This document shows, in pieces, positions 8,510 through 51,070 of a stretch of DNA of 64,000 bases (the stretch's first letter is position 1; the number at the start of each line of letters is the position of its first letter). A model generated the notes under the pieces. It was not told where the DNA came from. It saw only the letters and a list, made by a program, of their open reading frames with translations, and made no database searches. Source of the DNA: Promethearchaeia archaeon (GTDB lineage Archaea > Asgardarchaeota > Lokiarchaeia > Sigyniarchaeales > SOKP01); contig JAHQWL010000096.1 in NCBI GenBank assembly GCA_029856155.1, positions 17,140-81,139 of the forward strand, given 5' to 3'. Both the position numbers and the translations under genes were made by a program.

Positions 8510-8516
8510 TTTAACT

Positions 8517-9188: not shown

Positions 9189-9413
9189 TTTTTTCACAAA
9201 TTTTTTTTTTTTTAAAAGGTATTTTTTAATCTTAAGTAGTGAAATTAATCAAGATATTTATTATTTTGAGTTATGAAATGTAACGTTTCGAAAAGAAAAA
9301 TATTAAAAATAAAAATTTATATGATAAAAAAGAAACTATTATACCTAAAAGAGTTAAATTTTAGACCCCTTTCACGTTCACAGTCCAATTAATAAAGAGT
9401 ATAATCAAAGGTC

Positions 9414-11268: not shown

Positions 11269-12186
11269 TTACATTATTTCTCTGTTAAAGATCTCAAGTG
11301 AATCCTGTAGGTCAGGACTTTCTACTACTATAACCATTTTTTTAACACCCAAATTTTCAACTTTCTGTATTTTTTCTTTAATATCCTCAGAAGTACCCAT
11401 AAATAGGTATTTCATGTGGGATTCTAAGATTTCTCTTTCTCTTCTTAGACTTTCAAGACTTTCCTGACTGTCTACTATTGTAACATTAGAGAAAAGAGAG
11501 ATCTCGAACTCCGAAGGATCACGGTTGTACTTCTTTAGTTTTTCTTTAATTGTAGAAATACTATCTCTCAATACTTCTTGTTGTTGTACATCTAAATAGG
11601 GTAAGTTTATTCCATCTGCTTCTCTACAAGCAATATCAATCATTCTCTTTCCATTTGTTCCTATTACGATCTGCGGGTACGGTTTCTGAATGGATTTAGG
11701 AAAATTCCTATGTCTTTCCAGTTTCCAAAAATTACCCACAAAGTTAGTTTCATCTTCAGTAAATATCTTCTTATAGATGGTCAGTGATTCCTCTATCTCA
11801 TCAACTCTTCTCTTTGGTGTGTGAAATGGGTAACCATACGCCATATATTCTTCAGCATACCATCCTGCCCCTAACCATAATAAAACTCGCCCATTAGAAA
11901 TATGATCTAAAGTCAGTATAACTTTAGCTAAATAAGCTGGATTACGAAAGGAGTTACACAACACAATATGACCTAATTTGATTTTGTTAGTTTGCGTTGC
12001 TAAAGCTGCTAATAGTGTATTAGCCTCTAGAAAGGTTTCTTTTTTTTCTTGAGTGTCATCAAAACCTAATAAATGATCAGTAACATGAACAGATTCAAAC
12101 TCTAATCCTTCAAGTCTCACCGTTAGATCCCTAATTTCAGGATAGGTACGATATGAAGGATTTCTTACACAATACCCAAATCTCAT
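11269..12186 (-). CDS. LLM-class (luciferase-like) flavin/F420-dependent oxidoreductase
   Basis: TDHL, LAALA..T..IKLG, FRNPAYLAK...TLDHISNGR..LGAGW..EEY.AYG. Confidence 0.9.
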   Translation of the reverse strand: MRFGYCVRNPSYRTYPEIRDLTVRLEGLEFESVHVTDHLLGFDDTQEKKETFLEANTLLAALATQTNKIKLGHIVLCNSFRNPAYLAKVILTLDHISNGRVLLWLGAGWYAEEYMAYGYPFHTPKRRVDEIEESLTIYKKIFTEDETNFVGNFWKLERHRNFPKSIQKPYPQIVIGTNGKRMIDIACREADGINLPYLDVQQQEVLRDSISTIKEKLKKYNRDPSEFEISLFSNVTIVDSQESLESLRREREILESHMKYLFMGTSEDIKEKIQKVENLGVKKMVIVVESPDLQDSLEIFNREIM

Positions 12187-21990: not shown

Positions 21991-22590
21991 ATGTTCATGA
22001 TTATTGATCACTGTGACAAGACAATCAGTATAAAAATCGTGTATTTTGGGCCTGCTTATTCAGGTAAGACTACTTCTATTAAAGCTTTATTCTCTCACTT
22101 TGGTAAGGATGAAGCATTACAAAGTATCGAAAGTACAGTAAAAAGAACCTTATTTTTCGATTATGGAACAGTTACATTTCAAAATGAAGAATGGAAGTTG
22201 AAACTCCATATTTATACTACAACTGGCCAGGATTTCTATTTGATTACCAGACCGATCACCTTAAGAGCAGTTGATGGAATCATTCTCGTGTTAGATTCTC
22301 AAGAAGAAGTATATGAACGTAATCTTATTTCTTGGAATGAACTTATGTCATATTTTAGAGATAGTATTGATGATATTCCAATAATAATTGCATTTAACAA
22401 ACAAGATCTACCAGAGAAATTCAGTCCTGGAGATTTCTTAAAGGAAATTGATTTTCACAAATTTAAGAATATGGAATCAAAATATACTATTGCGGTTAGT
22501 GGAGAGGGAATACTTGATTGTTTTGAAGATGTACTGAGATTGATACTAAGGAAATTTTGTAAACATAGATTAGTTTCAGCTATAAATTGA
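21991..22590 (+). CDS. MglA-like small GTPase
   Basis: KIVYFGPAYSGKTT (G1), RTLFFD (MglA G2 with catalytic Arg), YTTTGQ (G3), NKQD (G4). Confidence 0.88.
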   Translation: MFMIIDHCDKTISIKIVYFGPAYSGKTTSIKALFSHFGKDEALQSIESTVKRTLFFDYGTVTFQNEEWKLKLHIYTTTGQDFYLITRPITLRAVDGIILVLDSQEEVYERNLISWNELMSYFRDSIDDIPIIIAFNKQDLPEKFSPGDFLKEIDFHKFKNMESKYTIAVSGEGILDCFEDVLRLILRKFCKHRLVSAIN

Positions 22591-24515: not shown

Positions 24516-24986
24516 TTATAAAACTCGAACTTCCGATTGTTGTTGAAGGGTTTTTATTGGTCTTAAAACTACGCATACTCTCTCAACACTTTTTACATCT
24601 GCACGGGCACGAAATGATTCTATTAACGCATCTAGCTCAGTTATTTCAGGTACATTGACTTTTATTAAAACACCACATTCTCCCGCGAGAAAATAAACCT
24701 CCTCACATTGAGGTAGAATTTGGGCTTCTCTTAATAATTCTTTTGTCTCAGCTAAGCTCTTTGGAATAAGTGTGAGGAATACTATAATGCATCTCTCATC
24801 TTCGCGACAAATCTTTATAGTAAACTTTTCAATTACCCCTTCTTCTTGCAGTTTGATAACTCGTTTTCTTACAGTCGATTCAGATAATTGTATTTTTTCA
24901 TCTGCTGCTATTTCGTGATATGGTCTTCTAGAATCCGCAAGAAGCATTTCAAGGATTCTTTTATCCTTATCATCTAAATTTTTCAT
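24516..24986 (-). CDS. Lrp/AsnC family transcriptional regulator
   Basis: LDDKDKRIL..L..DSR...EIA...LSESTVRKRV..L..EGVI HTH plus C-terminal RAM domain. Confidence 0.92.
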   Translation of the reverse strand: MKNLDDKDKRILEMLLADSRRPYHEIAADEKIQLSESTVRKRVIKLQEEGVIEKFTIKICREDERCIIVFLTLIPKSLAETKELLREAQILPQCEEVYFLAGECGVLIKVNVPEITELDALIESFRARADVKSVERVCVVLRPIKTLQQQSEVRVL

Positions 24987-25082: not shown

Positions 25083-26015
25083 TCAAAAATCTTTGAGAAG
25101 TGGTCCAAATAACCTTTCGTAGTGGACTGCCATGCAATGAATACCTGCGGCTTTAGTAGTTTTCTTGATTTCTTTAATAAATGGTTCGTAAAATTCTAGA
25201 TTAATTTTATCGATCGCAGCATATTTTTCTTGTTTATCTTTTATTTTTTTAGTTGCCTTTAGAGCATTTAAAAAATCTTTGGGAACAGAAACACCAGGAA
25301 TATATTCATTAAAATACCACGCAATCCCATAGTTTTTTATTGGAAACAACCCAAGTAAAATTGGAGTATTATATTTTTCTAATTCCTTTAGAAACTCCTT
25401 AGCATCATCAATATCAAATGAAGTTTGGGTTTGAATGAAATCTGCTCCTATTTCTACCTTTCTCCCAACTTTTAAAATTTCTGGCTCTCTTGGATTTGAA
25501 TTTGGATTTGCAGCACAACCAACGTTTATTTGCGGTTTTCCTCCTACTATCTCATTTCCTTCTAAATCAGTTCCTTCATCAACCATTTTTGAAACGAGAT
25601 CTATCAATTGAGTAGAATCTAGATCATATACAGGTCTAGCATTTTGGTGATCTCCAAGGGCAGAATGATCACCTGTTAATGCAAGTAGATTTTTAAGACC
25701 GAGAATTGCACCACCTAAAATATCACCAAATAGAGCAATTCTATTTCTATCTCGAACAGTCATCTGCCAGATAGCTTCTAATCCGACTTTTTCTTGAACT
25801 AGATAGCAAGGAACCATGGAACATGTATAAGCATCTCCTTGAGGACCATCTGTAACATTAGCGGCAACGATTTTTCCAGTATTTTTCATTGCTTCTGCAG
25901 ACTTCAGAACATGTGTTAAATCAAAATCTTTTTCAGGTTCTAATTCGCCAGTGAATACAAATTTTCCTTCTTTAATATTCTTTACTAAATTACTATAAGC
26001 GGGTCTTTTTGGCAT
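25083..26015 (-). CDS. metF: Methylenetetrahydrofolate reductase MetF (copy 2, in hdr cluster)
   Basis: TGELEP, ANVTDGP, QMTVRDRN, LTGDH, DLDS, AANP, FIQTQ; start reset to ATG 26015 just after the metV stop. Confidence 0.9.
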   Translation of the reverse strand: MPKRPAYSNLVKNIKEGKFVFTGELEPEKDFDLTHVLKSAEAMKNTGKIVAANVTDGPQGDAYTCSMVPCYLVQEKVGLEAIWQMTVRDRNRIALFGDILGGAILGLKNLLALTGDHSALGDHQNARPVYDLDSTQLIDLVSKMVDEGTDLEGNEIVGGKPQINVGCAANPNSNPREPEILKVGRKVEIGADFIQTQTSFDIDDAKEFLKELEKYNTPILLGLFPIKNYGIAWYFNEYIPGVSVPKDFLNALKATKKIKDKQEKYAAIDKINLEFYEPFIKEIKKTTKAAGIHCMAVHYERLFGPLLKDF

Positions 26016-26016
26016 T

Positions 26017-26715
26017 TTATACTTTCTCCTCCTTTTTCGGTTCTTCCACATTTGAACTTGGTTCATAAATATGTAAAAATCGTGGACTCGACCATATGCG
26101 GTAATTACGTGGTGGTCTATATGTTGTAAATAGATCTAATCTGTTAAATTTCTTCAGACGTTCCCACATTTTCACCCAAGCACAATCATATATATATCCT
26201 CCAACTTCACATTTACCATCGACTTGTCCTCCACAAGGACCGTTACTCAGGTTTTTAGCACACCCCGCCATCGGACAAATACCTCCTGTAACTCCAAGTA
26301 AACAATCCCCACATGTTTCGCAATATTCAGCAAAATAATTTTCTCCATTATTCTCTACACCTCCAAACATACTATTTTGTGCTGGAAAAGTGAGAATTGT
26401 AGGAATGATTCTATTTAACATTCCTACGCCTAAACCACATGCTAATGAAACAATTGCATCATACTCTTCAATAAACGGTCTTAATGTTGTAGCAGCAATT
26501 CTGTCATCACATTGTCTTAAAACTGTGATGGCTTTCCATTTTAAATCTTTTCCATTACTCCTTGCTTTTAATTCTAACATTTGTGCTAATACTTTTGCTT
26601 CATTAATTGAACGTGGAGGTTGACAACATCCATCACAACCAGCCACTAGAATTTTTGAATATGGTTTTATCATTTCATATATTTCTTCAATATCTTTTTG
26701 TTTAGTTATAATCAT
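26017..26715 (-). CDS. metV: MTHFR small Fe-S subunit MetV (copy 2)
   Basis: MIITKQK, GCDGC, RQCD, ACGLG, CETCGDC..GICP..CAKNLSNGPCGG..KCEV..CAW. Confidence 0.88.
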   Translation of the reverse strand: MIITKQKDIEEIYEMIKPYSKILVAGCDGCCQPPRSINEAKVLAQMLELKARSNGKDLKWKAITVLRQCDDRIAATTLRPFIEEYDAIVSLACGLGVGMLNRIIPTILTFPAQNSMFGGVENNGENYFAEYCETCGDCLLGVTGGICPMAGCAKNLSNGPCGGQVDGKCEVGGYIYDCAWVKMWERLKKFNRLDLFTTYRPPRNYRIWSSPRFLHIYEPSSNVEEPKKEEKV

Positions 26716-26753
26716 TTTAAAAAACTCTTAATTTTATTAATTTGATAATTAAA

Positions 26754-29700
26754 TCATTTTGTTATAAGAATTTCTTCTTTTTTATAGTCATTTTCAATAG
26801 GACCTAACTTTTTTAATTTTTCGGTCAACCCTGTAATGGTTTCAGCAAATAATTTCCCTTCACTCGCAGAGATCCATTTTCGCATGAACCTTTCTGGATT
26901 GATTCCAAGAGATTCTAATATTTTTTCAATTTCATTAGTTCTTCTTAAAGCATCTTGATTTCCCGCGATGTAGTGGCAATCGCCGAGATGGCATCCACCA
27001 ACAAAAACACCATCAGCACCTTCTAAAAATGCTTGCAATATGAAGCTCTTTGGAATACCACCAGAACACATAACCCTTATTGTCCTTATATTTGGAGGAT
27101 ATTGATACCGACTTACTCCAGCTAAATCAGCACCGGCATAACTACACCAGTTACAGAGAAAAGCAACAATTCTTGGTCGTCCATCTGAAAGTGAAGTTTT
27201 TGCAGCTTCAGTTATCATTGGTTCAATTTGAATACGTCCGAAGTGACTCATTGTTATAGCTTCTGCGGGACATTCAGCAGCACAATCTCCACAACCTTTG
27301 CAAAGTAAAGGATTAACTTCAGAGATCATTAAACCTTCTTCATATTTTACACCAATTGCACCATAATTACAAACTTCAGCACATCTATTACAACCAATAC
27401 ATAAAGCAGGATCAACCTTAGAAATGATACCTTCAGTTATTAAGATATCTTTAGATAAAATTGTGGTGGCTCTAGAGGCGGCAGACATTGCTTGTGCTAT
27501 ACTTTCACTTATTGTTGCAGTTCCACGAGCAGTACCACATAAAAAGATACCATCAGTAGCGAAATCTGATGGTCGGAGCTTTACGTGAGCCTCTAAGAAA
27601 AAATTATCATCATTGATAGGAACCTTCAACATTTTTGCTATATTTTCGTTTATTTCGCCATCAGCAACTATACCGGCGCTTAGAGCGACTAAATCCGCAT
27701 TTATCTTGATATTTCCAATATCCGGTTTATCTATATAAATAGCTAATTTACCATTTTCTAGCTTTATTTCTGGAGGTTTATCATCTTTAAACCTAAGAAA
27801 AATTACTCCTTTTTCTCTTGCTAAATTATAATATTTTTCTTTAAAACCATAAGTTCTTATATCTCTATATAGAACAGTGATATTAAGATTTGGATTAATT
27901 TCTTTTGCTTTTAATGCATTTTTAATGGCTTCACTACAGCATATTCTACTACAATAAGGATGCTCTTCATTCCTTGATCCAACACACTGGATCATTACGA
28001 CTGATTTTAGATCATTAATTTTTTCTTCTTCAGTAAAGAGAATTTTCTCAAGTTCTGATTGTAATATAACTCTATTATCATTATCAAAAAGAAATTCATT
28101 ATTTTTAGGTTGATATTCCTGAGCTCCCGTAGCAACTATAATAATACCGTGCTGGAATTCTTTCTTTTGTTTCTCTTTACCATAAGTAATTTTGGTTGTA
28201 AAATTACAAACATATCCTCCTATTGAACTAATTTTAGCATTTAGAAATACATTAATGAGCTTATGATCGTTAACTTTCTTAATTAAATCTTCAAGAAATT
28301 CTTGAACGTCATAATTTTCTATAGTTTGATAAATATTATTAGAAAAACCCCCTAATTTTTCACTTTTCTCTACGAGGAACACTTCAAATCCTTGATTTGC
28401 AAGGTTTAAAGCTGCTGACATCCCAGAAACACCTCCTCCAATTACCATTCCCTTGTGAATTACTTCTACTTGTTGTTCTTGAAGAGGGACTAATTTTCGA
28501 GCTTTTGCAACAGCCATTCTCACTAAATCCTTTGCTTTTTCTGTTGCTTTCTCTGGTTCATGCATATGTACCCATGAACATTGATCACGTATATTTGCTA
28601 AATCGAAGAGATATTTATTCAAACCTGCCTCTCTAATGGTTTCTTGAAATAATGGTTCATGAGTTCTTGGTGTACATGAAGCAACTATTACTCTATTTAA
28701 ATTATACTCTTTGATTTTTTCTTTAATATTAGTTTGAGTATCAGCAGAGCATGTATATAAATTTCTTTCTGCGTAAATTACATCATGTAATTGATTTGCA
28801 TATTCGACAACTTCAGGAACATCTACAACTCCTCCAATATTAATGCCACAATGACATATAAAGACACCGATGCGAGGTGGTTCTCCACTTGTATCAATTT
28901 CTTTTGGTAATTCTTTTTCAGTGATTAATGTGTTCCTAACATCAGATAAAAGAATATTCACTGCACCTGCGGCAGCACTCGCCTCCACAACTGTTTCTGG
29001 AATATCTTTAGGTTCTGAAATCATACCACATACATAAATTCCTTCTCTGGATGTCTCTACGGGGGAGAATGGTTTTGTCTTACAGAAATCATAATCATTC
29101 AATTCAATATTTAATTTTTTTGCTAACTCTTTTGTGCTATGATTTGGTAAAGCTCCTACTGCTAAAACAACTAAATTAAAAACCTCACTAACTACTTTTC
29201 CATCTTCATTTTCAAAATGAAGTAATAGATCTTTTGTTTCAGGTATTTCCTTAGTATCCGAAATTCTACTTCTAATATATCTTATACCATATTCATTTTG
29301 AGCACGTTCAATATATTTATCGAAATCTTTTCCAACAGCTCTCACATCCATTGAAAAAATCGTGGGTTCAATAATTTCCATATGTTCTTTCGCAATTACA
29401 GCTTCTTTAGCGGTATACATACAACAAACTGAAGAACAATATTCTGCACCATGTTTTTTATCCCTAGACCCTACACATTGTAGGAATGCTACTTTTTTTG
29501 GAATTATTCCGTCTGACGGTCTGAGGATAAGCCCCGAATGAGGACCACTTGCGCTTAAAATCCGTTCAAATTCAATACTAGTGACTACATTCAAATATTT
29601 ACTGTATCCATATTGTTGGGTAAGACTAGGGTCATATTCATCAAACCCAAGTGCTAAAACAATAGCTCCAACATTCAGAGTAGTAAATTTATCTTCAAGA

Positions 29701-30215
29701 GTGTAATCTATTGCTTTAGCTTTACAAACTCCTTTACAAAAACCACATCCTATACATATTTCTTGGTCTATCGAAAAAACCAATGGAACTGCTTGTGGAA
29801 ATTTTACAGATATTGCTGCTCTATTTGATAATCCTTCATTAAAGAAATCGATTGCCTCTACAGGACATTCTTGTGCGCACACCCCACAACCAGTACACTT
29901 CTCTTGATCTAATAACAACGTATTTTGTCGCAGATCTACAGAAAAATTTCCGGGATTTCCTTCAATTTTTTCTAAAGTGGTATTAATTAAAAGTGTAATA
30001 TTTTCATGACGCCCCGCAGCAACTAATTTAGGAGCGAGGATACATATAGAACAATCATTCGTAGGAAAAGTTTTATCTAATTGAGACATAACACCTCCTA
30101 TACTCATTGAAGATTCAATTAAATAAACTTTAAAGCCTGAGTCTGCCAAATCCATTGAAGCTTGGATACCTGCTATTCCTCCTCCTATTACTAGAACTGC
30201 ACCAATTTTTTCCAT
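26754..30215 (-). CDS. hdrA: Heterodisulfide reductase subunit A-like protein: two FAD modules fused to C-terminal MvhD
   Basis: [16 protein letters not shown], ferredoxin insert, [22 protein letters not shown], second GGGVSG module, ferredoxin, then [25 protein letters not shown]. Confidence 0.93.
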
Positions 30216-30217
30216 CT

Positions 30218-30988
30218 TTAAACCTCTTTAATTGATATAAAAGTGGGAATTTCCTCATTTATTTGATCAACATCAACTAAACCTCGAGCTCGAAGAGTTA
30301 CAATATGTCGTAATACTTTGTGAGATTCAACACCAATTTCCTTTGCAATATCAGGGACAGATTTACCTTCTTTCTTAATTTTTTCTAAAATTTTATGACG
30401 AATAATTTCATTTTCAATAGCATTATCAAGTATTTCCTCAAATTCTTCTATTGGTATTATTTCTCCATATACATTTCCATCTGTGGTTAATTCTCGTTGC
30501 CTAGCAACTAAAGCTCTTAACCTTGAATCACATAGGGCAAATTTAACAGCATTTAGATTATCAATTATTTCTTTCTTTACATTATTATTTTTAACTGGAG
30601 ATGGTCCCAATTTACGGATATGATCAGTAAAATCACTAACTATTTGAGCAAATCTATTTCCTTCTGCTGCAGAAACCCAATCAAGTCGAACTCGATCAGA
30701 GAAATCTATCATTGATAATGTTTTACTTAACATTTTCATTTTTATTTCTGCTTCATAATTACCGCTTATATAATGACAATCTCCCAAATGGCATCCTAAA
30801 ACAAGTACTCCATCAATCCCATTCATAAATGCTTCAGCTATAAATACGGGATCAACTCTTCCAGAACACATAACTCGAATAACTCTGACATTTGTTGGGT
30901 ATTGGATTCGACTAACACCTGCTAAGTCTGCTCCAGCATAAGAGCACCAATTACATAAAAAACCTAAAATTTTTGGTTCAAATACCAT
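30218..30988 (-). CDS. mvhD: MvhD/FlpD [2Fe-2S] subunit with C-terminal winged-helix extension
   Basis: [33 protein letters not shown]; tail [29 protein letters not shown]. Confidence 0.92.
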
Positions 30989-32656
30989 TTATTCTCCACC
31001 TCCATAGGTTACAATTTCTGCAATAATTTGATCACTAGTAAAATGGTGTATGGTTATTGCATTTTGCGGGCAACTAGCTCCACATAGTCCACACCCCTTA
31101 CAAACAACTTTATTAACTACTACAGTATCTGTTTCCTCATCTTTAGATATTGCACTATAGGGACAAATTTTAATACACGCTTCACATCCCACACATAAAT
31201 CTGTATTTACTTCGGCTGTAGAACCTTCTACTTCTAACATTTCTTTAGAAAGTATTGTACTTGCCCTAGAAGCTGCCGCATTTGATTGTGATATAGATTC
31301 TGAAATATCTGCTGGCCAATGAGCAGAACCACATACGAATATACCGTCTGTAGCAAAATCAACAGGTCTTAATTTCACATGAGCTTCTAAAAAGAAGTGA
31401 TTCTCTCCTAATGGTACTTTTAACATTTTAGCTAACTGCTCTGAATCTTCATTTGCAACAAGTGGCATTGATAATACAACAAGATCATAGGGAAATCCAA
31501 TAACTTGATTCATAAATTCATTATAGACCTCAATACAATCTTTTTTAATTGTTGGAGGTTTTTCTGGTAAATATTTTATAAATAATATTCCCATTTCTCT
31601 TGCTCTTCTATAATATTCCTCATAGGTGACACCTTGAGTTTGAATATCTCTAAAAATTATATTAACATTAGCATTTGGATTGTGTTCCTTGATTAAGATT
31701 GCATTTTTAAGAGCAGTCATACAGCATATATTAGAACAATATTTTCGTTCTTCATTTCTACAACCAACACATTGAATCATAGTAGTATTATTGGTGCTGA
31801 TTTTATTCTCTTTTAATATTCCTTCTAATTCTAATTGACTTATTATAGTCTTTCCATTATAATTATAATATCCTTCTGGTGATAAAGCTTTTGCCCCCGT
31901 AGCTACAATAATAGCTCCTGCTTCAATTTCGATTGTTTTTTTATTTTGGAGAATAATTACTTTAAAATTCCCTACATATCCTTCAATTTTTTCTATTACA
32001 GCAGACTTATATACATCAATCTTTTTATGACTCTCTACTAAATTTCTTGTTTCTAATATATTTGAAGCATCTTCATTAGTAGGATATACTTTATTTAGAT
32101 GCCTAATTAAACCTCCTAGTTCAGCATCCCTCTCTATTAAACTTACTTTAAAATTTTGGTTTGCTAAATTTAATGCAGCATTCATTCCTGCGATCCCTCC
32201 TCCTATTACTATAGCAAAAGGAATTACACTAACTTGCGTTTTTTCTAATGATTCTAATAGGGCAGCCTTATAGACACCCATTCTAATGAGATCTTTAGCC
32301 TTTTCAGTTCCTTTTTCTGGTTCTTTCATATGAACCCAGGAATCTTGATCTCGAATGTTTACCATTTCAAATAAATAGGGATTCAAACCTGCTTCTTGAC
32401 AAGTTGATCTAAATAAGGGTTCATGAGTTCGAGGAGAACACGATGCTACAATAACACGATTTAAATTATATTCCTTTATATTTTTTCTTATCTCACTTAA
32501 TCCAACCTCTGAACATGTATAAAGATTTGCATCACTATATACTACGTTAGGTAAAGTTTTGGTATATTCTGTTAACTCAGAAATATCTAAAACACCACCT
32601 ATATTAGTACCACAATGACAAATAAAAACTCCAATTCTAATATCATCATCCGTCAT
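30989..32656 (-). CDS. hdrA: HdrA-like subunit, second module (split form)
   Basis: [49 protein letters not shown]-terminal 2x[4Fe-4S]. Confidence 0.9.
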   Translation of the reverse strand: MTDDDIRIGVFICHCGTNIGGVLDISELTEYTKTLPNVVYSDANLYTCSEVGLSEIRKNIKEYNLNRVIVASCSPRTHEPLFRSTCQEAGLNPYLFEMVNIRDQDSWVHMKEPEKGTEKAKDLIRMGVYKAALLESLEKTQVSVIPFAIVIGGGIAGMNAALNLANQNFKVSLIERDAELGGLIRHLNKVYPTNEDASNILETRNLVESHKKIDVYKSAVIEKIEGYVGNFKVIILQNKKTIEIEAGAIIVATGAKALSPEGYYNYNGKTIISQLELEGILKENKISTNNTTMIQCVGCRNEERKYCSNICCMTALKNAILIKEHNPNANVNIIFRDIQTQGVTYEEYYRRAREMGILFIKYLPEKPPTIKKDCIEVYNEFMNQVIGFPYDLVVLSMPLVANEDSEQLAKMLKVPLGENHFFLEAHVKLRPVDFATDGIFVCGSAHWPADISESISQSNAAASRASTILSKEMLEVEGSTAEVNTDLCVGCEACIKICPYSAISKDEETDTVVVNKVVCKGCGLCGASCPQNAITIHHFTSDQIIAEIVTYGGGE

Positions 32657-32660
32657 TTTT

Positions 32661-33959
32661 TTACCCCCTCATCACCATTTCAGCAGCTTTAGCTGCAGCT
32701 CCACTGGCATCAATTACTGAATTTGGAATATCCATTGGTTCCCTACAAGTACCACAGAGAAATATACCTTCTTTAGAGGATTTTTGGGGTTGATAACTCT
32801 CTGCTTTGAAAAAATTAAAATCATTTATTTTAATTCCAAGGATTTTAGCTAATTCTCCAGCATCTTTTTTAGGTATCATAGTAGAAGCTAAAATTACTAA
32901 GTCAAATTTAAGTTGTTTCACTTGCGAAGTATTAATATCTTCATATATAATTAGAGGATTTCTTTGATCATCTTCTAATATCTTCGCTACCTTTCCTTTA
33001 ATGTATTTAATAGCGTATTCATCACATCCCCTTTGAATATATTCTCGAAAACCTTTACCAGCAGCTCTAAGATCAATATAAAATATTGAAGTATCTATTT
33101 CATTATCATGCTCATAAGCTATCATTGCTTCTTTAGTGGTATACATACAGCAACAAGATGAACAATATGGATTGTTTTTTATATCCCTTGAACCTACACA
33201 ATTAATAAAAGCCAGTTTTTTAGGCTCATTTTTATCTGATGGTCTCGTCAAATGTCCTCCCAAAGGTCCAGAAGCACTAATTAATCTTTCAAATTCTAGA
33301 GCGGTAACAACATTGGGATATCGACCATATCCTAAAGAATCAAGAGTTTTTGGATTAAATATATCATAACCTGTCGCTACAATGACTGATCCCACATTTA
33401 ATTCCATTTCTTCATCCTTTTGATCGAAATCGATTGCTTCTCTTTCACAAACTTTTTCACAAATCCTGCAAGCGTTCTTTGTGAAAAATAAACAGTTTTC
33501 TTTATCTATAGTCATTATTGAGGGAACACCTTGAACATAATCAATATAGATTGCTCTACGTTTTCTTAATTTCATATCAAATTCATCATCTACCCTCATT
33601 GGACATTTTTCTATACATTGTCCACAATTAATACATTCTTCTGCTTTTACATATCTTGCTTTCTTGAAGATTTTCACAATGAAATTCCCTGGTTGACCTG
33701 ATAAATTTTTTACTTCTGAAAGTGTATGTAAAGTAATATTTGGATGTCGAAAACATTCTGCGAGTTTTGGAGCTAAAATACAGATAGAACAGTCATTAGT
33801 AGGAAACGTTTTATCAAGTTGTGCCATTCGTCCTCCGATACAGGCATTTTTCTCAACCAATTCGACGTTTATACCTCTTTCAGCTAAATCTAAAGATGCT
33901 TGAATTCCTGCGATTCCCCCTCCAATAACCATAACTGTTTTTAAATTTTTACCCAACAT
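32661..33959 (-). CDS. hdrA: HdrA-like subunit, first module (split form)
   Basis: [16 protein letters not shown], ferredoxin insert, LEFER, CVGSR..YCSSCCC. Confidence 0.9.
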   Translation of the reverse strand: MLGKNLKTVMVIGGGIAGIQASLDLAERGINVELVEKNACIGGRMAQLDKTFPTNDCSICILAPKLAECFRHPNITLHTLSEVKNLSGQPGNFIVKIFKKARYVKAEECINCGQCIEKCPMRVDDEFDMKLRKRRAIYIDYVQGVPSIMTIDKENCLFFTKNACRICEKVCEREAIDFDQKDEEMELNVGSVIVATGYDIFNPKTLDSLGYGRYPNVVTALEFERLISASGPLGGHLTRPSDKNEPKKLAFINCVGSRDIKNNPYCSSCCCMYTTKEAMIAYEHDNEIDTSIFYIDLRAAGKGFREYIQRGCDEYAIKYIKGKVAKILEDDQRNPLIIYEDINTSQVKQLKFDLVILASTMIPKKDAGELAKILGIKINDFNFFKAESYQPQKSSKEGIFLCGTCREPMDIPNSVIDASGAAAKAAEMVMRG

Positions 33960-33976
33960 AATTCCTCTCCTTTATA

Positions 33977-34846
33977 TTAAGCAATTTTTTGTAAAATATC
34001 ATTAACTTTAATCCTATGGAAGTTGAAACCTAATTTATCCATATCCATTCCTAGAGCTAAAGCAATTAGCTCGGTTATGTAAAAAACTGGAAAATTATAG
34101 TTTGTATTTTTAATTTTATTTATTTCTCTCTGGTTGAAATCAAATTGTTGATAACAAGCGGGGCAAACACATGCAATACAATCTGTTCCTGCTTCTTTCA
34201 TACTTTTAAGCTTACTCTCCAACATACTTAGGGAAATATCCTTATCAGATTTTTCTACGGGATTCCCACAACAATCATTCTTCAAACTGTATTCAACTGG
34301 ATTTGCTCCAGTTGCTTCAATTAATTCATCTAATGTTTTAGGATTTAGTGGATCATCCCAATTTATTATTTCAGATGGACGTAAATAATGGCATCCCGGG
34401 TGACCCGCAACTCTTAGATCTTTTAATGGTTTCTTGACCTTTTCCTTAATTTTTTCAATATTTTCATATAACACTTCAGCAAAATGTTTTATATCAATAT
34501 TTCCTTTATAAGCTTTTCCAATTACCTTTAATTTCAAATTAATTTCTTTTTTCTTCTCGTTATCATTATCTAAAATGTGTTTAACTGTTTTAAGAGATTC
34601 TGTACATCCAGAACATAGACTTAATATATTCTTTTTACTTTCTTCGAAAAGACATATATTTCTTGCTCCTAAAGTTAAGAATGTTTCATGATCCAATTGA
34701 GCCGCACCAGTAGGATCTGGGCAACATGAACATTTAGCTTGATCTCCAACTTTCAAACCAATTTTTTCGAATGTACTTCGCGCAGATGCTTCTAAAAATG
34801 GTAGTCTTCCAGGAATTACACAGCCTAAAAAGTAACTATAAGACAT
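33977..34846 (-). CDS. hdrB: Heterodisulfide reductase subunit B
   Basis: YFLGC, CCP, CSGC, HPGCH, CCG and CPAC: two CCG domains. Confidence 0.93.
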   Translation of the reverse strand: MSYSYFLGCVIPGRLPFLEASARSTFEKIGLKVGDQAKCSCCPDPTGAAQLDHETFLTLGARNICLFEESKKNILSLCSGCTESLKTVKHILDNDNEKKKEINLKLKVIGKAYKGNIDIKHFAEVLYENIEKIKEKVKKPLKDLRVAGHPGCHYLRPSEIINWDDPLNPKTLDELIEATGANPVEYSLKNDCCGNPVEKSDKDISLSMLESKLKSMKEAGTDCIACVCPACYQQFDFNQREINKIKNTNYNFPVFYITELIALALGMDMDKLGFNFHRIKVNDILQKIA

Positions 34847-34847
34847 T

Positions 34848-35354
34848 TTATTTATTTACCTCAAACAGTTTTATTTTTTTTTCAAAATCAGTAGCATCTA
34901 ACAATTTTTTTAATTCTTTAATATTAGCAGTTTCTACATTCGGAAGTCCCAATTGATCTCTTCTACGAATGATTGGTTGTGTTAGGGGAATTGCTAATCC
35001 ATGTTGTATTACACTTATTGCTTGCATTTTATAAGTCTCAGGGTAAGGTTCTCCTAATAACACAATCTTATTTTTAATTTTCTCAAAAATTTCCGTCAAA
35101 AAAACGTTTTGGGGGCATTCTTCTACACACATCTGGCATGTACAACATAACCATACATTAGGTTTTTGATCTTTTAATAACAAATCTTTTAGCCCTAATA
35201 GTGATTGTTCGATAATTTTTCGAGGATTATATTCACCATTAGTGATTAAAGCAACAGGACATGTGCTGGAACAAGTTCCACATTGATAACAATAATTTAG
35301 TGAGAAAGCTCCTTTAATCAGTTCATTTCGAAATTCAAAATCAACCATTTGCAT
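34848..35354 (-). CDS. hdrC: Heterodisulfide reductase subunit C
   Basis: CYQCGTCSSTCP and WLCCTCQMCVEECP. Confidence 0.92.
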   Translation of the reverse strand: MQMVDFEFRNELIKGAFSLNYCYQCGTCSSTCPVALITNGEYNPRKIIEQSLLGLKDLLLKDQKPNVWLCCTCQMCVEECPQNVFLTEIFEKIKNKIVLLGEPYPETYKMQAISVIQHGLAIPLTQPIIRRRDQLGLPNVETANIKELKKLLDATDFEKKIKLFEVNK

Positions 35355-35862
35355 AATCTTTAACCTATATAGTAATTAGTATGATATATTTTAGAATCTA
35401 ATTATCTATTTTATAAATATTGATATTTTTAATAATATATTTATTATATTTTTAAGGATTACAATAGTTTTTTCCAATATAATAATTAAGATCGATCTTA
35501 GTATTTAAAGATTTTTTACCATTTCGGAAATATATAACTTTTTTTAAAGTTTCCAACATTTTCATTTATGATTTTGAAAAATAAGTAAGAAAAAAGTATT
35601 AATTTAAAAGCTTTTTAACTTTTTAAATTATCACATTTGAATATTAATTCAAAATATGATTAAAAACGCAATTTTTTACAAGAAAAATTCTTAATATAAA
35701 AATAATGAAATCGGGAAGTATAATTTAAATTCCTATATTTTTATAGTAAAAAATATACGATTTAAGTCATTTTCATATGTTTTTATTAATAAAAATTATA
35801 ATATTTGTAAGTATTATAAAAATATTAATTAATTTTTAGATAGAAAGAAAAGGTAAATTAGT

Positions 35863-36993
35863 ATGTCTGAAGAACCTACAGCTAAAATGAGTGATATCAT
35901 GCCTAAATCTTTCGAAGACCTCATTAAAGATGTCCATGAAAAAGATATCTGTGGAGAATGTGGAGGTTGTGTAAGTTTTTGTACCGCAGCAGATATAGGA
36001 GCTATTGAAATGACTGAAAATGGGTCACCTCATTATTCTAATGAAGAAAATTGTTTACATTGTGGAATATGCTATTTAATATGTCCTGAAACTTTTGAAT
36101 TGAGAAATGAATTAAACAATAAATACGATTTTAAACCTCCAATTGGAAGTTGGCTTAAAATTGTATCAGCTCAAGCGAAAGATCCAAATATTCGGGAAAT
36201 AGCTACTGATGGGGGAGTTGTAACAGCTATCTTAATTGCACTTTTAGATAATAATTTAATAAATGGAGCACTTATATCAAAAAGAATTAGTTCTTTTAAG
36301 AGAATACCTTTTTTTGCTAAAACGAAGGAAGAAATTCTTGAAGCTGCAGGTACTTATTATGATTTAAAAGGCCCTGTACCGGAATTAGGGAAATATAATA
36401 CTTTTGTTTCCACTATTTCTGAATTAAAAAAAATTACTGATTCCGATTATATGAAAATTGCTGTGGTCGGAGTACCCTGTCAGATTCACTCCATTAGAAA
36501 AATGCAAGAACTCAATATAATTCCTGCTCATATTGTTAAATATACGTTAGGATTATTTTGTTATGAGAATTTTAAATTTAATGATGTTGCCAGAGCGAAA
36601 ATTGAAGAAAGATTCAAATTTTCTTTTGAGGATATTGAGAAGATGAATATAAAAGACAATTTAATAATTTATTTAAGAAATAAAGATAGTCCCCTAAAGG
36701 TAGAATTTTCTGACCTTAGAGATATTATGAGACATGCTTGTAGAGTATGTAAAAATTTTTCAAACTATTTTGCTGATATTTCTTTTGGAGGTTTAGGTTC
36801 TCAAACAGGTTATACAACGGTTATGGTTAGAACTAAAACAGGAGAAAAGATCTACAATCTCGCTCAAAATAAAGGTTATATTATTGAACCAACTGAATTA
36901 AATACGTCTGTAGAAAAATCAAAATTATTAGCGCAAATCATTAGTTTTAGTAAAAGAAAGATAAGAAGAGCTGAAGATTTTGAAGTAATATAA
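35863..36993 (+). CDS. F420-reducing hydrogenase beta/FpoF-type (FrhB family) F420-interacting Fe-S flavoprotein
   Basis: N-terminal 2x[4Fe-4S] (CGECGGCVSFC, CLHCGICYLICP), DGGVVTA, AAGT.Y, VGVPCQ, GLFC, C..C..F...ADIS.G. Confidence 0.9.
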   Translation: MSEEPTAKMSDIMPKSFEDLIKDVHEKDICGECGGCVSFCTAADIGAIEMTENGSPHYSNEENCLHCGICYLICPETFELRNELNNKYDFKPPIGSWLKIVSAQAKDPNIREIATDGGVVTAILIALLDNNLINGALISKRISSFKRIPFFAKTKEEILEAAGTYYDLKGPVPELGKYNTFVSTISELKKITDSDYMKIAVVGVPCQIHSIRKMQELNIIPAHIVKYTLGLFCYENFKFNDVARAKIEERFKFSFEDIEKMNIKDNLIIYLRNKDSPLKVEFSDLRDIMRHACRVCKNFSNYFADISFGGLGSQTGYTTVMVRTKTGEKIYNLAQNKGYIIEPTELNTSVEKSKLLAQIISFSKRKIRRAEDFEVI

Positions 36994-37308: not shown

Positions 37309-37992
37309 TTGGTGAAGATACTAGTAAGTGGTCCGTTGCAATCTGGAAAATCAAGTTACATAAAAGCATTAGATCCAAATGCTTTGAATGTAGAAGCAAA
37401 AGGAAAGGATGAGAAATTTTATACAGTCGGGATGGATCTTGGAAGCGTAAAGTTAAATGGATTTGATTGTTACTTATTTGGTACTCCCGGTCTTTTAAGA
37501 TTTTCAATAATGAGAAGTATTGTCACCACAGGTTCTGATGGGATAATTTTTATTTTTGATGCTGCTGCTCCAGAAAAAGATGATAGTGCAATTGTAATAT
37601 TAAATTCTGTACGTAAGTTATTACCTCCTAACACTCCAATAACATTTGTGGCAAATAAGCAGGATATTGAAGGCGCACGACCACCAGAAGTGATCCGAAC
37701 TCAAAATTATTTACCTGAAGATAGTAAAATCTTTCCTACAAGTACAAAAACAGGAATGAACATAAGAGAATCAGTTACTTATTTAGTAAATCATATTTAT
37801 GAAGAATATTCATCATTACTTCAAACACTTCGGGCATATGAGAATGATATTGAAGGGTTAGCACAAGAATTAAAAAAAGATAAGATTCAAATGCGAGATT
37901 TATTAAATAATTTAGAGATTAAACGATTTATTGAAGTGGATAGAATTAAAAAGGAATTTAAAGTAAGAAGTGGGTTAAAATATTTAGTTTAA
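37309..37992 (+). CDS. Small GTPase (ATP_bind_1/conservon-MglA-related) with C-terminal winged-helix-like domain
   Basis: GPLQSGKS, TVGMDLG, FGTPG, NKQD; start may be GTG 37312. Confidence 0.82.
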   Translation: MVKILVSGPLQSGKSSYIKALDPNALNVEAKGKDEKFYTVGMDLGSVKLNGFDCYLFGTPGLLRFSIMRSIVTTGSDGIIFIFDAAAPEKDDSAIVILNSVRKLLPPNTPITFVANKQDIEGARPPEVIRTQNYLPEDSKIFPTSTKTGMNIRESVTYLVNHIYEEYSSLLQTLRAYENDIEGLAQELKKDKIQMRDLLNNLEIKRFIEVDRIKKEFKVRSGLKYLV

Positions 37993-43747: not shown

Positions 43748-44674
43748 TTAGATTAATTGTGCTAAAATCTTAATTACATCCTCAAGAAAATCAGGGAATC
43801 GCTCAAAAAAATTTTCTTTTTCTTGTTCTTTAAGTACTGCAGACACAAAAAACATGTCATTATTTATTTTCTTTCTTAATAAATATGAAAAGAGCGGACC
43901 TTCAGTCGATGTAAAATCAAAATTTCCTTCATATTTTTCCTCATCCATCCGTTTAAGTAAGAAGAGATGTTCTTTGATAGATTCTAGCAACTCAACATAT
44001 ACTTCAGGGTTGATATCGCTATAATATTCAGAAATGATAATACCACTTCGATCAAATATAATTAAAGCTTGACATTTAAAAATATCTAAATAGTATTCTA
44101 ATAATTCTGAAAGTTGAAAAAACTTTTTATCAAATACAGAAAGCCCATATGAAACTAACTGGACGATAGAAATTATATCATAAATAGATGATTGCTGAAA
44201 TAATATATTGAAATAAGGATATTCATTTAATATTTTTTCTCTTAATTTTTCAATATTTCCAAGGATTTTTTCATCAGCTTTTAACTCAGGATCGTATTTA
44301 TGAAATGTTATTATTATCGGAACATTCATTTCACTCTTTTCAAAGAAGCTTAAAATTGAATTTAAGTATTCAAGGGATTGATCAAATCTATCCGGATCCT
44401 GAATATCTATTACATAGATTAGTAAATCAGTAGAATCAAAGTAAACATCTTGATAATTGATATAAATCTCTCGATATGTTTCTTGACCTCCCATATCCCA
44501 GAATACCGTATTACTTCTTAAGAAATTCATCTTATGATACTCTATTCTAATGGTGGGTTTAAGTTGTACGATATCCTTCTCAAAATCATACTTTTTATCA
44601 AGTGCAGTTAAGATTGAGGTTTTACCGGCATTATCAAGCCCACTTACTACAATTTTTAAAAATAAACCTTCCAA
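43748..44674 (-). CDS. Rag/Gtr-like small GTPase with C-terminal roadblock/longin-like domain
   Basis: GLDNAGKTS, PT, WDMGGQ, Rag-type G4 HKYD, SSIYD; C-terminal IIFDRSGIIISEY. Confidence 0.82.
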   Translation of the reverse strand: MEGLFLKIVVSGLDNAGKTSILTALDKKYDFEKDIVQLKPTIRIEYHKMNFLRSNTVFWDMGGQETYREIYINYQDVYFDSTDLLIYVIDIQDPDRFDQSLEYLNSILSFFEKSEMNVPIIITFHKYDPELKADEKILGNIEKLREKILNEYPYFNILFQQSSIYDIISIVQLVSYGLSVFDKKFFQLSELLEYYLDIFKCQALIIFDRSGIIISEYYSDINPEVYVELLESIKEHLFLLKRMDEEKYEGNFDFTSTEGPLFSYLLRKKINNDMFFVSAVLKEQEKENFFERFPDFLEDVIKILAQLI

Positions 44675-45687: not shown

Positions 45688-46731
45688 TCATTTCTTTAAT
45701 CTTTCACATCTATTCAAATTTTTAATTTGCTTTAACACTGATTTAGGTAAATTTTTTTCATTTCCTTCTTTTAAAGCAAGTATTTTAGTTATGATGAGAA
45801 GTTCACTTTGTTCAAACCCATCAATATTTGTCCAACCCTCTGATCCTCCCGCTTCAATACAAATAAAAAAAGGAGCCTTTTTGAATTTTAAACATTTATT
45901 ATCCCGGCATTTTTCACATATTTTAGGATAATAATATACATTACCATTTTTAAGAAAAATTGAAAAGTTGCCCAATTCCTTATTTTTAACTCGAATCCAA
46001 TTATCAGACTCAAATTGAACTTTCAAATTTAAGCTTAAAATATATTTTATCAATTGTTCTGTATTTATCGCTCGAATAACATTTGTATTACGTGTTTCAG
46101 GTTCATAATAGTCATTACATTCATCAGTGATGTCAGAATGATTGAAAAGGAGATTTAAAGGAATAAAGTCTATGATATAAACATTTTCCATTTCTTTATA
46201 TTTATTTCTCTTTAAAAATATTGAACAAATTTGATCCAGAATGTCTAATGGCTCAGATATTTCATTAATATACACATTATTTGATTTTATAATTGAATCA
46301 AAATCTCTATTTTTTAAATGGCTGTTAATAATATCTTCTCTAGTAAAGTGTTCAAGGATTATGCAAAAAATTATAGTAATTGATGGTATTCGTGTTTGGA
46401 TTTCATTAAAATAGTACAAAATTTGATCCACTTTTCTCTCAGAAATGAAAATTATTATAGCTTCTGCCCCATTATAAAAAATAGTTCGCAAATAAGCCCT
46501 CTGTTGTCTACAATCAATATTCCATAAAAGAAATTCAAATTTTTCATATTGTTTAAATGAAAAATCAATTTTGCTAATATTTACGCCAATATTTTGTTTA
46601 TTTTCTATAGGTAAGGAATTTGAACTCAATTTTTTTTGAAACTCATCCTTATAATTTTCAGTCCCTCCTAAGATACAAATCTTCTTTTTTATTAGGGGAT
46701 TTCTTAAGAGTGGAGTTTCTAAAGAGTTCAT
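45688..46731 (-). CDS. Degenerate Rab/Ras-like (pseudo)GTPase with Cys-containing C-terminal domain
   Basis: KICILG(G1 eroded), NIGVN, FLLWNIDCRQ (G3 eroded), RTIFYNGAEAIII; CEKC..C..C in the tail. Confidence 0.65.
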   Translation of the reverse strand: MNSLETPLLRNPLIKKKICILGGTENYKDEFQKKLSSNSLPIENKQNIGVNISKIDFSFKQYEKFEFLLWNIDCRQQRAYLRTIFYNGAEAIIIFISERKVDQILYYFNEIQTRIPSITIIFCIILEHFTREDIINSHLKNRDFDSIIKSNNVYINEISEPLDILDQICSIFLKRNKYKEMENVYIIDFIPLNLLFNHSDITDECNDYYEPETRNTNVIRAINTEQLIKYILSLNLKVQFESDNWIRVKNKELGNFSIFLKNGNVYYYPKICEKCRDNKCLKFKKAPFFICIEAGGSEGWTNIDGFEQSELLIITKILALKEGNEKNLPKSVLKQIKNLNRCERLKK

Positions 46732-49741: not shown

Positions 49742-51070
49742 TTGAAGAAAAAAGTAGCTGAAATCAGAACTCTTTTACAAGAACATCACGATTGGTTCCA
49801 AAAATCAATTCCTCTCATCGCTTCTGAAAATATTACCAGTCCCGCTGTGGATGAAGCTTGTGCCTCTGATTTTTCACATCGATATGCAGAAGGCTGGAGT
49901 GGACAGAGAGTTTATGCGGGGTGCACTTATATAGATCAAATCGAAGATATTTGCATGGAACTTACAAAAGAATATTTTGATTGTTTACATGCTGATGTTC
50001 GACCAATATCTGGAGTTGTAGCAAACTTAGTTATGTATAATGCATTTACTTCAGATAATAATGGTAAGATGTGCTGTATGTCTATCGTTCGTGGTGGTCA
50101 TATTTCACATGGACCAAGATTCGCAAAAAGTGGTAGAGAAATTTATGGTACAGCTGGTACAACTAGAGGAATTAATGTAGAATATTTAGCTTTTGATAAT
50201 GATGAAATGAATTTAGATATTGATGCTTCTGCAAAAATAATCAGAGAATTTGAGCCTGAATTAGTTTTATTTGGTGGTTCAGTATTTCTATTCCCACACC
50301 CCGTTAAAGAACTTGGTGAGGTTGCAAAAGAAGTGGGAGCATATATTGGCTATGATGCTGCCCATGTTGCGGGTTTGATTGGTTCTGGGTATTTCCAAGA
50401 CCCTTTAAGAGAAGGAGCAGATGTTATGACGATGAGTACACATAAAACACTCCCAGGACCTCAACATGGTACATTAGTATCAAACAGAGAAGATTTAGTC
50501 GAAAGTTTGAGATCTTGTGCTTTTCCGGCTTTGTTATCTAATCATCATCTGCATAATGTTGCTGGATTGGGGATAGCATTAGCAGAAATGCTAGAATTTG
50601 GAAAGGAATACCATAAAAATGTTATAGAAAATGCCAAAGCTCTTGGACAAGCCTTATCTGATATTGGTTTGAAAGTATTAATGGAACATAAAGGATTTAC
50701 TGAATCTCATCAGATTGTGGTTGATATTACAGACTTTGAGAAAACTATTGGATTGGGTGGAGACATTGAGAAAATACTAGAAGAGGCTAATATTATCCTT
50801 AATCGTAATCTTTTACCATATGACATCGCTGCAGGTAGACATTACCAAAATCCAGGCGGTTTGAGAATGGGAACCTCTGAAATAACTCGGCTTGGTATGG
50901 GAAAAAATGAAATGGTTGATATTGCTGATTTTTTTAAAAAACTACTAATTGATAAAAAGGACCCTAAAAAGATAAGAAATGACGTGGCTGAATTTAGACA
51001 AGGTTTCCAAGAAATAAAGTATTGTTTTCAATCTCCAAATAAAGCATATGAATATTTGAAGTTTTTCTAA
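49742..51070 (+). CDS. glyA: Serine hydroxymethyltransferase (archaeal type)
   Basis: LIASEN, RYAEG, GGHISH, YDAAHV.GL, PLP-lysine motif STHKTLPGP, GLRMGT. Confidence 0.95.
   Translation: MKKKVAEIRTLLQEHHDWFQKSIPLIASENITSPAVDEACASDFSHRYAEGWSGQRVYAGCTYIDQIEDICMELTKEYFDCLHADVRPISGVVANLVMYNAFTSDNNGKMCCMSIVRGGHISHGPRFAKSGREIYGTAGTTRGINVEYLAFDNDEMNLDIDASAKIIREFEPELVLFGGSVFLFPHPVKELGEVAKEVGAYIGYDAAHVAGLIGSGYFQDPLREGADVMTMSTHKTLPGPQHGTLVSNREDLVESLRSCAFPALLSNHHLHNVAGLGIALAEMLEFGKEYHKNVIENAKALGQALSDIGLKVLMEHKGFTESHQIVVDITDFEKTIGLGGDIEKILEEANIILNRNLLPYDIAAGRHYQNPGGLRMGTSEITRLGMGKNEMVDIADFFKKLLIDKKDPKKIRNDVAEFRQGFQEIKYCFQSPNKAYEYLKFF

Follow-up and report, generated by a model that had tools for sequence, protein, structure and literature searches.

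We analyzed a 64,000-nt stretch of DNA (hereafter the window; contig JAHQWL010000096.1, positions 17,140-81,139 of the forward strand, assembly GCA_029856155.1) from a metagenome-assembled genome (MAG) belonging to the Promethearchaeia (Lokiarchaeia) and found an operon of eight minus-strand open reading frames (ORFs), arranged head to tail at 35354..25083, in which heterodisulfide reductase-type genes (hdrC, hdrB, hdrA) and mvhD are followed by metV and metF. An initial annotation, made from the sequence alone, had read this operon as a Wood-Ljungdahl methyl-branch step coupled to flavin-based electron bifurcation. The observation is real and strongly conserved, and its interpretation is largely right at the genomic level. 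Judged from its genes, the operon is the best candidate for the missing (Mer) step of the Lokiarchaeial carbon-fixation pathway, in a family without canonical Mer. By analogy with characterized systems, we lean toward the view that it encodes an Hdr-type MetFV system which carries out the methylene-/methyl-tetrahydromethanopterin (H4MPT) step and is wired to ferredoxin, to a substrate of HdrBC and probably to coenzyme F420 through an FrhB-like gene.

Gene content and domain anatomy of the operon

Pfam and NCBIfam profile searches gave the order hdrC, hdrB, hdrA 'a' module, hdrA 'b' module, mvhD with a winged-helix tail, a 1153-aa HdrA-HdrA-MvhD fusion, metV, and metF. The eight co-oriented hdrCBA-mvhD-metVF genes of the initial annotation are therefore where it had placed them, and the gaps, which it had put at about 0-40 nt, span 0-38 nt (1, 17, 4, 0, 2, and 38 nt from hdrC through metV). 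The operon shares HdrA, HdrB, HdrC, and MvhD, with their cluster-ligand motifs, with the MvhAGD-HdrABC and FdhAB-MvhD-HdrABC complexes of methanogens (5ODC, 7BKB, 8RVU): the four proteins match 5ODC-type structures with E-values of 1e-48 to 1e-197, and all of the cluster-ligand motifs are aligned. HdrC (34848..35354, 168 aa) has two CxxCxxCxxxCP [4Fe-4S] motifs in a Fer4 dicluster domain (Pfam Fer4_8; TIGR03290, 98 bits). HdrB (33977..34846, 289 aa; TIGR03288, 302 bits) has two CCG domains (PF02754, twice) and aligns over its full length to 5odc_B (E 1e-75) with ten of the ten cluster-ligand cysteines kept, and the MvhD cysteines are invariant.

The initial annotation had taken the two separate hdrA genes for the N- and C-terminal parts of a single HdrA. 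We rejected this split-gene assignment because the profile coverage and the pairwise matches to the downstream fusion show two complementary modules, each of them a complete flavin adenine dinucleotide (FAD)/thioredoxin reductase (TrxR)-like unit with complementary accessory domains. The 'a' module (32661..33959, 432 aa; HdrA2 model positions 140-563) consists of the FAD/TrxR core with an inserted 2x[4Fe-4S] ferredoxin domain and a TNDCSIC motif, whose second cysteine aligns to Cys197 of 5ODC chain A (numbering from the 5odc_A alignment), and it has neither the N-terminal domain nor the C-terminal ferredoxin domain. The 'b' module (30989..32656, 555 aa; HdrA2 model positions 1-234 and about 319-647) combines the N-terminal Cys-cluster domain with the FAD/TrxR core and a C-terminal 2x[4Fe-4S] ferredoxin domain, and its core lacks the inserted ferredoxin domain and Cys197. 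TNDCSIC is confined to the 'a' modules and the N-terminal Cys domain to the 'b' modules, and the arrangement of 5ODC, where Cys197 of the partner completes the N-terminal cluster, is thereby present in a complementary form. The 1153-aa fusion (26754..30215; HdrA2 model, 1176 bits in three stretches; FlpD, 174 bits) repeats the three preceding genes as a-b-MvhD in a single chain. It matches 5odc_A and 5odc_D (phmmer) and is 46% ('a', residues 2-417), 52% ('b', residues 448-997), and 53% (MvhD) identical to the separate proteins (pairwise BLASTP). GxGxxG, the CxxxCC cluster, and the CCMYxxK lysine are kept in all four HdrA modules, which, together with the two FlpD matches, confirms the count of four HdrA FAD modules and two MvhD domains in the initial annotation.

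HdrA of this complementary a/b kind, from which an asymmetric heterodimer with only one route to ferredoxin would follow, has been described for the tandem and fused HdrA of anaerobic methanotrophic archaea (ANME) and for Moorella HdrA (Chadwick et al. 2022, PMC9012536). The operon shares with ANME HdrA this division of Cys197 and the N-terminal domain between the modules, whereas its a-b-MvhD order differs from the b-a order of ANME HdrA3/4. Unlike in the 5ODC systems, the place of the HdrA homodimer is taken by asymmetric a/b pairs, of which one is split and the other fused, MetVF stands in the position of the hydrogenase or formate dehydrogenase, no gene for which was found in the window (NiFe hydrogenases are encoded on other contigs), and the host is not a methanogen. 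The separate MvhD (30218..30988, 256 aa; FlpD, 178 bits) comprises the MvhD domain (residues 1-135) and a tail of ~120 residues (136-256), which is helical and winged-helix-like with weak HTH_20/cas_HTH matches at residues 198-240. This C-terminal half (window 30218-30622) is conserved in the orthologues and in a paralogue on contig C4 of the same genome; in a Foldseek search with the AF2 model of MvhD, only the N-terminal half matched MvhD chains and the tail had no clear structural match.

MetV (26017..26715, 232 aa; PF12225, 101 bits) is the Cys-rich Fe-S/Zn subunit of MetVF-type reductases and has twelve conserved Cys columns in an alignment of 23 sequences; a sequence search for a relative with a solved structure found none. 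MetF (25083..26015, 310 aa; PF02219, 107 bits), hereafter MetF1, is a TIM barrel of the methylenetetrahydrofolate reductase (MTHFR) family with GELEP, LTGD, and QTQ motifs, for which we catalogued the invariant columns in the homologue alignment, and its match to the solved MTHFRs is weak in sequence. The longest metF ORF (26066..25083) would overlap metV by 50 nt. We rejected this overlap as an artefact of choosing the longest ORF, because database homologues of MetF are 310-312 aa long and the orthologous loci all start metF at a conserved M-x-K/R-R-P-A-Y/F-S and keep a 1-nt metV/metF junction; the true start is therefore M18 (window 26015), 1 nt past the metV stop. Adjacent metV and metF are a feature of the Moorella-type MTHFR. 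A complex prediction for MetF, MetV, and the fused MvhD domain, each given as an alignment, scored 0.32, and a control in which MetF was replaced scored 0.17, a result that counts neither for nor against binding.

Several features flank the operon. A 508-bp A/T-rich intergenic region (35355..35862) separates hdrC from a divergent plus-strand gene (35863..36993) for an FrhB/FpoF-like protein with an N-terminal 2x[4Fe-4S] domain (PF04432 and PF04422; frhB model, 155 bits), which is, from its sequence, a candidate module for the entry or exit of F420 electrons. On the other side, 96 nt downstream of metF, lies a minus-strand gene for an Lrp/AsnC-family regulator (24516..24986; Pfam HTH_AsnC and AsnC_trans_reg), and the metF-lrp spacer contains an oligo-T run and A/T-rich boxes. 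A scan for sigma-70 promoters and intrinsic terminators, which is ill-suited to archaea, gave counts at the level of shuffled sequence. Four small GTPase genes (Ras/Arf/Roc/RagA-like; 21991-22590, 37309-37992, 43748-44674, and 45688-46731), typical Asgard signature proteins, surround the operon. The Asgard-like host of the initial annotation is corroborated because Ras/Arf/Roc GTPase genes are present in the window and because the nearest homologues and database records carry the names Promethearchaeota, Promethearchaeia, and Lokiarchaeota.

Linkage in relatives and origin of the locus forms

We examined 40 family loci from the genome set and 80 named relatives; some genomes are represented in both sets. 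The MetF1 orthologue has Hdr genes immediately upstream in each of the 40 family loci and in 79 of the 80 named ones, and the last locus has no DNA upstream. The metVF-Hdr linkage on which the initial annotation rested is thus kept in the relatives, and in the window, hdrC, hdrB, hdrA, and mvhD share one co-oriented cluster with metVF, as in the Moorella type. The most frequent arrangement (about 49 of the 80) is a compact form, hdrA(a-b-MvhD)-hdrC-hdrB-metV-metF-lrp. About 25 loci (~30%) are of an enlarged form with two HdrA sets, of which 12 resemble the window, about six are without hdrCB, and four have both sets fused; one further locus has a lone fused HdrA beside metV. Both forms occupy the same chromosomal site, between the phosphoenolpyruvate carboxykinase (PEPCK) gene and lrp, and lrp follows metF in essentially all of the compact and enlarged loci. 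A third gene order, metV-metF-hdrA(a-b-MvhD)-hdrC-hdrB followed by two canonical mer genes, is found in another Asgard family, f19 (G025). The enlarged and compact forms have orthologous MetV and MetF (64-93% identity), whereas their Hdr genes are not orthologous (about 49% identity for HdrA, 36% for HdrB, and 33% for HdrC). The MvhD domain that adjoins metV is 69-71% identical between the two forms, compared with 42-53% for the rest of HdrA.

This recurrence bears on whether MetVF might be a stand-alone ferredoxin-dependent reductase, anabolic or catabolic, with the hdr adjacency reflecting shared regulation or genome organization. In vitro, bacterial MetVF is active by itself with reduced ferredoxin, and the Hdr subunits of Sporomusa ovata are not tightly co-purified with it (PMC9430772); moreover, the genome encodes about 15 HdrA paralogues, so that chance adjacency is possible, and a second MetV2F2 pair in the window is not linked to Hdr genes. 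We nevertheless consider a stand-alone enzyme quite improbable, as the adjacency extends over three gene orders and two non-orthologous Hdr sets, the spacing is operon-like, and MetVF of S. ovata pulls down HdrA, HdrB, and MvhD, indicating MetVF-Hdr/MvhD contacts (PMC9430772).

The locus forms bear equally on how many enzymes the operon encodes. Two enzymes might only be co-transcribed here, an F420H2-dependent, bifurcating FrhB-HdrAa/HdrAb-MvhD-HdrBC disulfide reductase resembling Methanosarcina HdrA2B2C2 and a smaller HdrA(a-b-MvhD)-MetVF enzyme that would couple ferredoxin to the C1 step without HdrBC. Such a division is suggested by a paralogous operon on contig C4 (C4:35730-49585), hdrC-hdrB-frhB-hdrAa-hdrAb-mvhD(wH, winged-helix)-hdrA(a-b)-mvhD, which shares the first block with the window (Hdr genes 56-62% identical) and continues with a second HdrA-MvhD and other partners, since two Fe-S proteins, a PyrK/NfnA-like FAD/NAD protein, and a second frhB stand in the position of metVF. 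It is also suggested by the two-set loci without hdrCB, by the locus with a single fused HdrA next to metV, and by the higher conservation of the fused MvhD domain than of the rest of HdrA. However, the compact, ancestral form and the f19 form put hdrC and hdrB with a single fused HdrA and metVF, which indicates that HdrBC normally belongs with MetVF, and the gaps are short (1, 17, 4, 0, and 2 nt) through the whole block. We therefore regard two separate enzymes as possible but doubtful. Of the enlarged four-FAD, two-MvhD complex proposed in the initial annotation, the content is confirmed; this form, itself derived, is one among several and may be two complexes. Since the C4 paralogue has other partners, the doubled Hdr block is a reusable scaffold with exchangeable substrate modules; the C4 operon itself looks like an uncharacterised F420/NAD(P)H-linked Hdr system. 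In 13 of the 20 two-HdrA-set loci with upstream DNA visible, FrhB is transcribed divergently from the Hdr genes, and the split HdrA set tends to travel with FrhB.

For the phylogeny of MetF, we built an IQ-TREE tree (LG+G4, 60 rows), with which FastTree agreed; bacteria were represented by sequences such as those of Clostridioides and Brocadia, and the trees did not contain the Moorella, ANME-1, or Syntrophoarchaeum sequences. The MetF1 clade is supported at 100/100 and is sister to a clade of the second MetF of the window, MetF2, and the Hdr-linked MetF of family f19 (98/96). All of these belong to a clade of Asgard and Bathyarchaeota MetF (100/100), with the Bathyarchaeota/Hecatellales representative P0129 inside it, apart from the bacterial representatives. 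The archaeal 'ANME-1-type' MetF clade is described as taking in Bathyarchaeota and other uncultured archaea, Asgard among them, and as distinct from the MetF of Methanosarcinaceae and bacteria (PMC9012536). From the trees, MetF1 is an Asgard-internal paralogue and not a bacterial import; we rejected its acquisition from bacteria together with the Hdr genes, and orthology to the bacterial Hdr-linked MetF is not borne out in trees that exclude the Moorella sequence itself. Because MetF1 lies in the Asgard/Bathyarchaeia clade, the Hdr linkage arose independently and was not carried in with a bacterial MetF, in contrast to the one archaeal case that Poudel et al. describe (PMC6085437). The enlarged-form loci form one clade (100/99) nested among the compact-form loci, and therefore the enlarged form is derived and the compact form ancestral. 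Each of the genera g1, g4, and g6 contains both forms, and the branching of the MetF1 tree departs from the genus labels, a distribution that suggests whole-locus exchange within the family or an old polymorphism. In two metagenomic representatives, P0145 and P0150, MetF is fused to CdhD, the delta subunit of CO dehydrogenase/acetyl-CoA synthase (CODH/ACS), in proteins of 845-1038 aa.

Among the closest known systems is the Hdr-type MetFV-HdrABC-MvhD methylene-tetrahydrofolate reductase of Moorella thermoacetica and S. ovata (Mock 2014, as presented in PMC9430772, PMC6085437, and PMC9012536). Like that system, the window groups these six types of protein in a single cluster that ends with metVF, its HdrA is likewise built from two TrxR-like modules between which the N-terminal domain and Cys197 are split, and a link to bifurcation has been proposed for both. 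Moorella HdrA has an NADH-oxidizing GltD-like insertion (PMC9430772); in contrast, the 'a' modules of the window carry an inserted ferredoxin-type domain, and no NAD(P)H/GltD-type domain was found among the Pfam and NCBIfam matches of HdrA. The window also differs in the fusion of MvhD to HdrA, in the second, split HdrA-HdrA-MvhD set, in the winged-helix tail of MvhD, and in the likely H4MPT carrier and the FrhB-like neighbor, in addition to the separate MetF clade and independent linkage. The Moorella parallel drawn in the initial annotation therefore stands for gene content and functional likeness, but not for orthology or for the NAD(P)H/GltD domain.

Pathway setting and the pterin carrier

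The MAG (4.1 Mb, 97% complete, 5.7% contamination) encodes Ftr (two copies), Mch, Mtd, CdhC, ribofuranosylaminobenzene 5'-phosphate (RFAP) synthase, and one FolD, while Fhs and FolC were not found in it; these and the following absences hold for the genomes actually searched. With the canonical Mer model (TIGR03555), only distant luciferase-like monooxygenase (LLM) paralogues were found in the genome, at 168 bits or less against a cut-off of 348.7. None of the 55 genomes of the window family has a Mer over the cut-off, compared with 64 of the 251 in the phylum, and Mch is present in 50 of the 51 family genomes. The methyl-branch setting assumed in the initial annotation is supported by this gene content, and the Wood-Ljungdahl role it proposed fits. 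With genes for Ftr, Mch, Mtd, RFAP synthase, and CdhC in the genome and no canonical Mer among those found, a substitution of MetF for Mer is plausible in the window family, and H4MPT is the most likely pterin carrier in the host. Such a substitution has been proposed for ANME-1 and Syntrophoarchaeum, the latter with MetFV-HdrA-MvhD clusters (PMC9012536). Like ANME-1 and Ca. Syntrophoarchaeum, the host has the archaeal H4MPT pathway with MetVF and without canonical Mer, but it belongs to another phylum without Mcr-based metabolism, and, unlike in those archaea, two a/b/MvhD sets stand in one operon and one of two MetF paralogues is Hdr-linked. Mer itself carries out the reaction proposed here, and its gene stands beside metVF in other Asgard families. 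Unlike MetVF, it has a luciferase-like fold, uses F420H2 directly, and has no Fe-S or Hdr partners.

Two other groups of genes could serve the same step. The metV2F2 pair (7577-9197, minus strand; MetV2 226 aa, MetF2 310 aa) has no Hdr neighbors, and MetF2 is about 50% identical to MetF1 (51% and 49.5% in two comparisons) and orthologous to the MetF beside mer in other Asgard families. In families f10, f14, f19, and f20 (G007, G012, G023, G025, G038, G047, and others), mer lies 0.3-6 kb from metVF, which is unlinked to Hdr genes except in f19. A minus-strand gene for an F420-type luciferase-like oxidoreductase (TIGR03560-like, 176 bits; window 11269-12186) lies 2 kb from metV2F2. On contig C88 (C88:26965-30386), three Mer-like LLM paralogues of the F420 type stand in tandem and score 135-168 bits with the Mer model. 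They correspond to what Yin et al. 2020 (PMC8027215) call the 'distant mer alternative'; these authors found Lokiarchaeota MAGs without typical mer and proposed a COG2141 candidate, with MetF unmentioned.

Several observations weigh against assigning the H4MPT step to the Hdr-linked MetVF. In genus g2 of the family, which has Mch but not Mer, the unlinked MetV2F2 is the sole such pair, and hence MetF2 could be the Mer substitute; the LLM paralogues on contig C88 are themselves proposed Mer candidates; many Asgard families carry both Mer and MetVF, and MetVF is therefore not a simple replacement of Mer. Moreover, HdrBC may not be obligatory, as several enlarged loci lack hdrCB, and the presence of FolD and GlyA makes a folate-type carrier possible, characterized MetF-family enzymes using tetrahydrofolate (H4F). 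GlyA, a serine hydroxymethyltransferase that produces methylene-pterin, is encoded on the plus strand of the window at 49742-51070, 14 kb from the operon.

The same complex might accordingly work on a folate-type carrier in the manner of Moorella, with electrons from F420H2 (through FrhB) or another donor bifurcated to methylene-H4F at high potential and ferredoxin at low potential, and with the H4MPT step left to MetF2V2 or to a Mer-like LLM. MetF being an MTHFR-family protein, the FolD and GlyA genes, the FrhB-like gene divergent from the operon, and the Mer-like LLM paralogues are all in keeping with this, and a high-potential methylene/methyl couple would ease forward bifurcation thermodynamically. 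The missing FolC and Fhs argue otherwise, as do RFAP synthase, Ftr, Mch, and Mtd, which point to H4MPT, and the mer genes that adjoin metVF in other Asgard families. Furthermore, 16 of the 54 family genomes, one of them 100% complete, have no Mer-like LLM at E<=1e-30. We consider the folate carrier unlikely and retain the H4MPT reading for the scheme below.

Proposed electron path and significance

From the gene content, cofactor motifs, linkage, and absence of canonical Mer, we infer a scheme in which the substrate, path, stoichiometry, direction, and number of complexes (one or two) are conditional. MetF, with its flavin TIM barrel, and MetV, with its Fe-S cluster, would interconvert methylene- and methyl-pterin, and by analogy with 5ODC, MetVF would take the place of the hydrogenase and feed or drain the MvhD cluster. 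In analogy with the Mvh-Hdr structure, electrons from MetV would enter the [2Fe-2S] MvhD domain fused to the 1153-aa HdrA and move through the C-terminal ferredoxin domain to the FAD of the 'b' module, the putative bifurcating flavin. From there, one branch would run through the TrxR-domain cluster to HdrC and HdrB, acting on a disulfide. The other would pass via the cluster of the N-terminal domain, for which 'a' supplies the completing Cys197-type cysteine, into the inserted ferredoxin domain of 'a' and from there reach ferredoxin. Overall, the reaction would read 2 CH3-H4MPT + Fd(ox) + RS-SR' <-> 2 CH2=H4MPT + Fd(red) + 2 thiols. The redox potentials (E0') used here, reportedly those of Thauer 1998, are about -310 mV for CH2=/CH3-H4MPT, -500 mV for ferredoxin, -140 mV for the heterodisulfide, and -360 mV for F420; with these values, the reduction of ferredoxin and disulfide driven by methyl-H4MPT would be near equilibrium and hence reversible.

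The split set (HdrAa/HdrAb/MvhD-winged-helix) and the divergent FrhB-like protein could form an F420 port. If an FrhB-HdrAa/Ab-MvhD-HdrBC unit, transferring electrons from F420H2 to ferredoxin and a disulfide, is added, the sum would be the Mer reaction, and thus the whole operon could transfer electrons from F420H2 to methylene-H4MPT through an internal ferredoxin/thiol relay or within a supercomplex. More tentatively, we propose that Lokiarchaeia with the Wood-Ljungdahl pathway might have replaced Mer with an Hdr-wired MetFV, making the C1 step a bifurcation/confurcation node at which the ferredoxin, F420, thiol/disulfide, and C1 pools meet; the two asymmetric HdrA pairs of the enlarged form, one split and one fused, might build a supercomplex unlike any characterized Hdr, with Hdr modules swapped around a fixed MetVF-MvhD unit.

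The system can be regarded as an archaeal variant of the Hdr-type MetFV reductase and as a credible answer to the missing-Mer problem in Lokiarchaeia. Its linkage is independent of that in bacteria and survives the exchange of the whole Hdr set, and the compact, doubled, and HdrBC-less versions, which can be compared with one another, provide a natural experiment on the still unsolved part that HdrABC-MvhD plays in Hdr-type methylene-tetrahydrofolate reductases. Models of Asgard energy metabolism, on which hydrogen and syntrophy hypotheses of eukaryogenesis draw, hinge on the electron carriers of the Wood-Ljungdahl pathway. For the step that is missing in Lokiarchaeia (PMC8027215), the conserved Hdr-MetVF operon provides a concrete and testable candidate, suggesting that this C1 step may be energetically coupled and not a simple F420 reaction.

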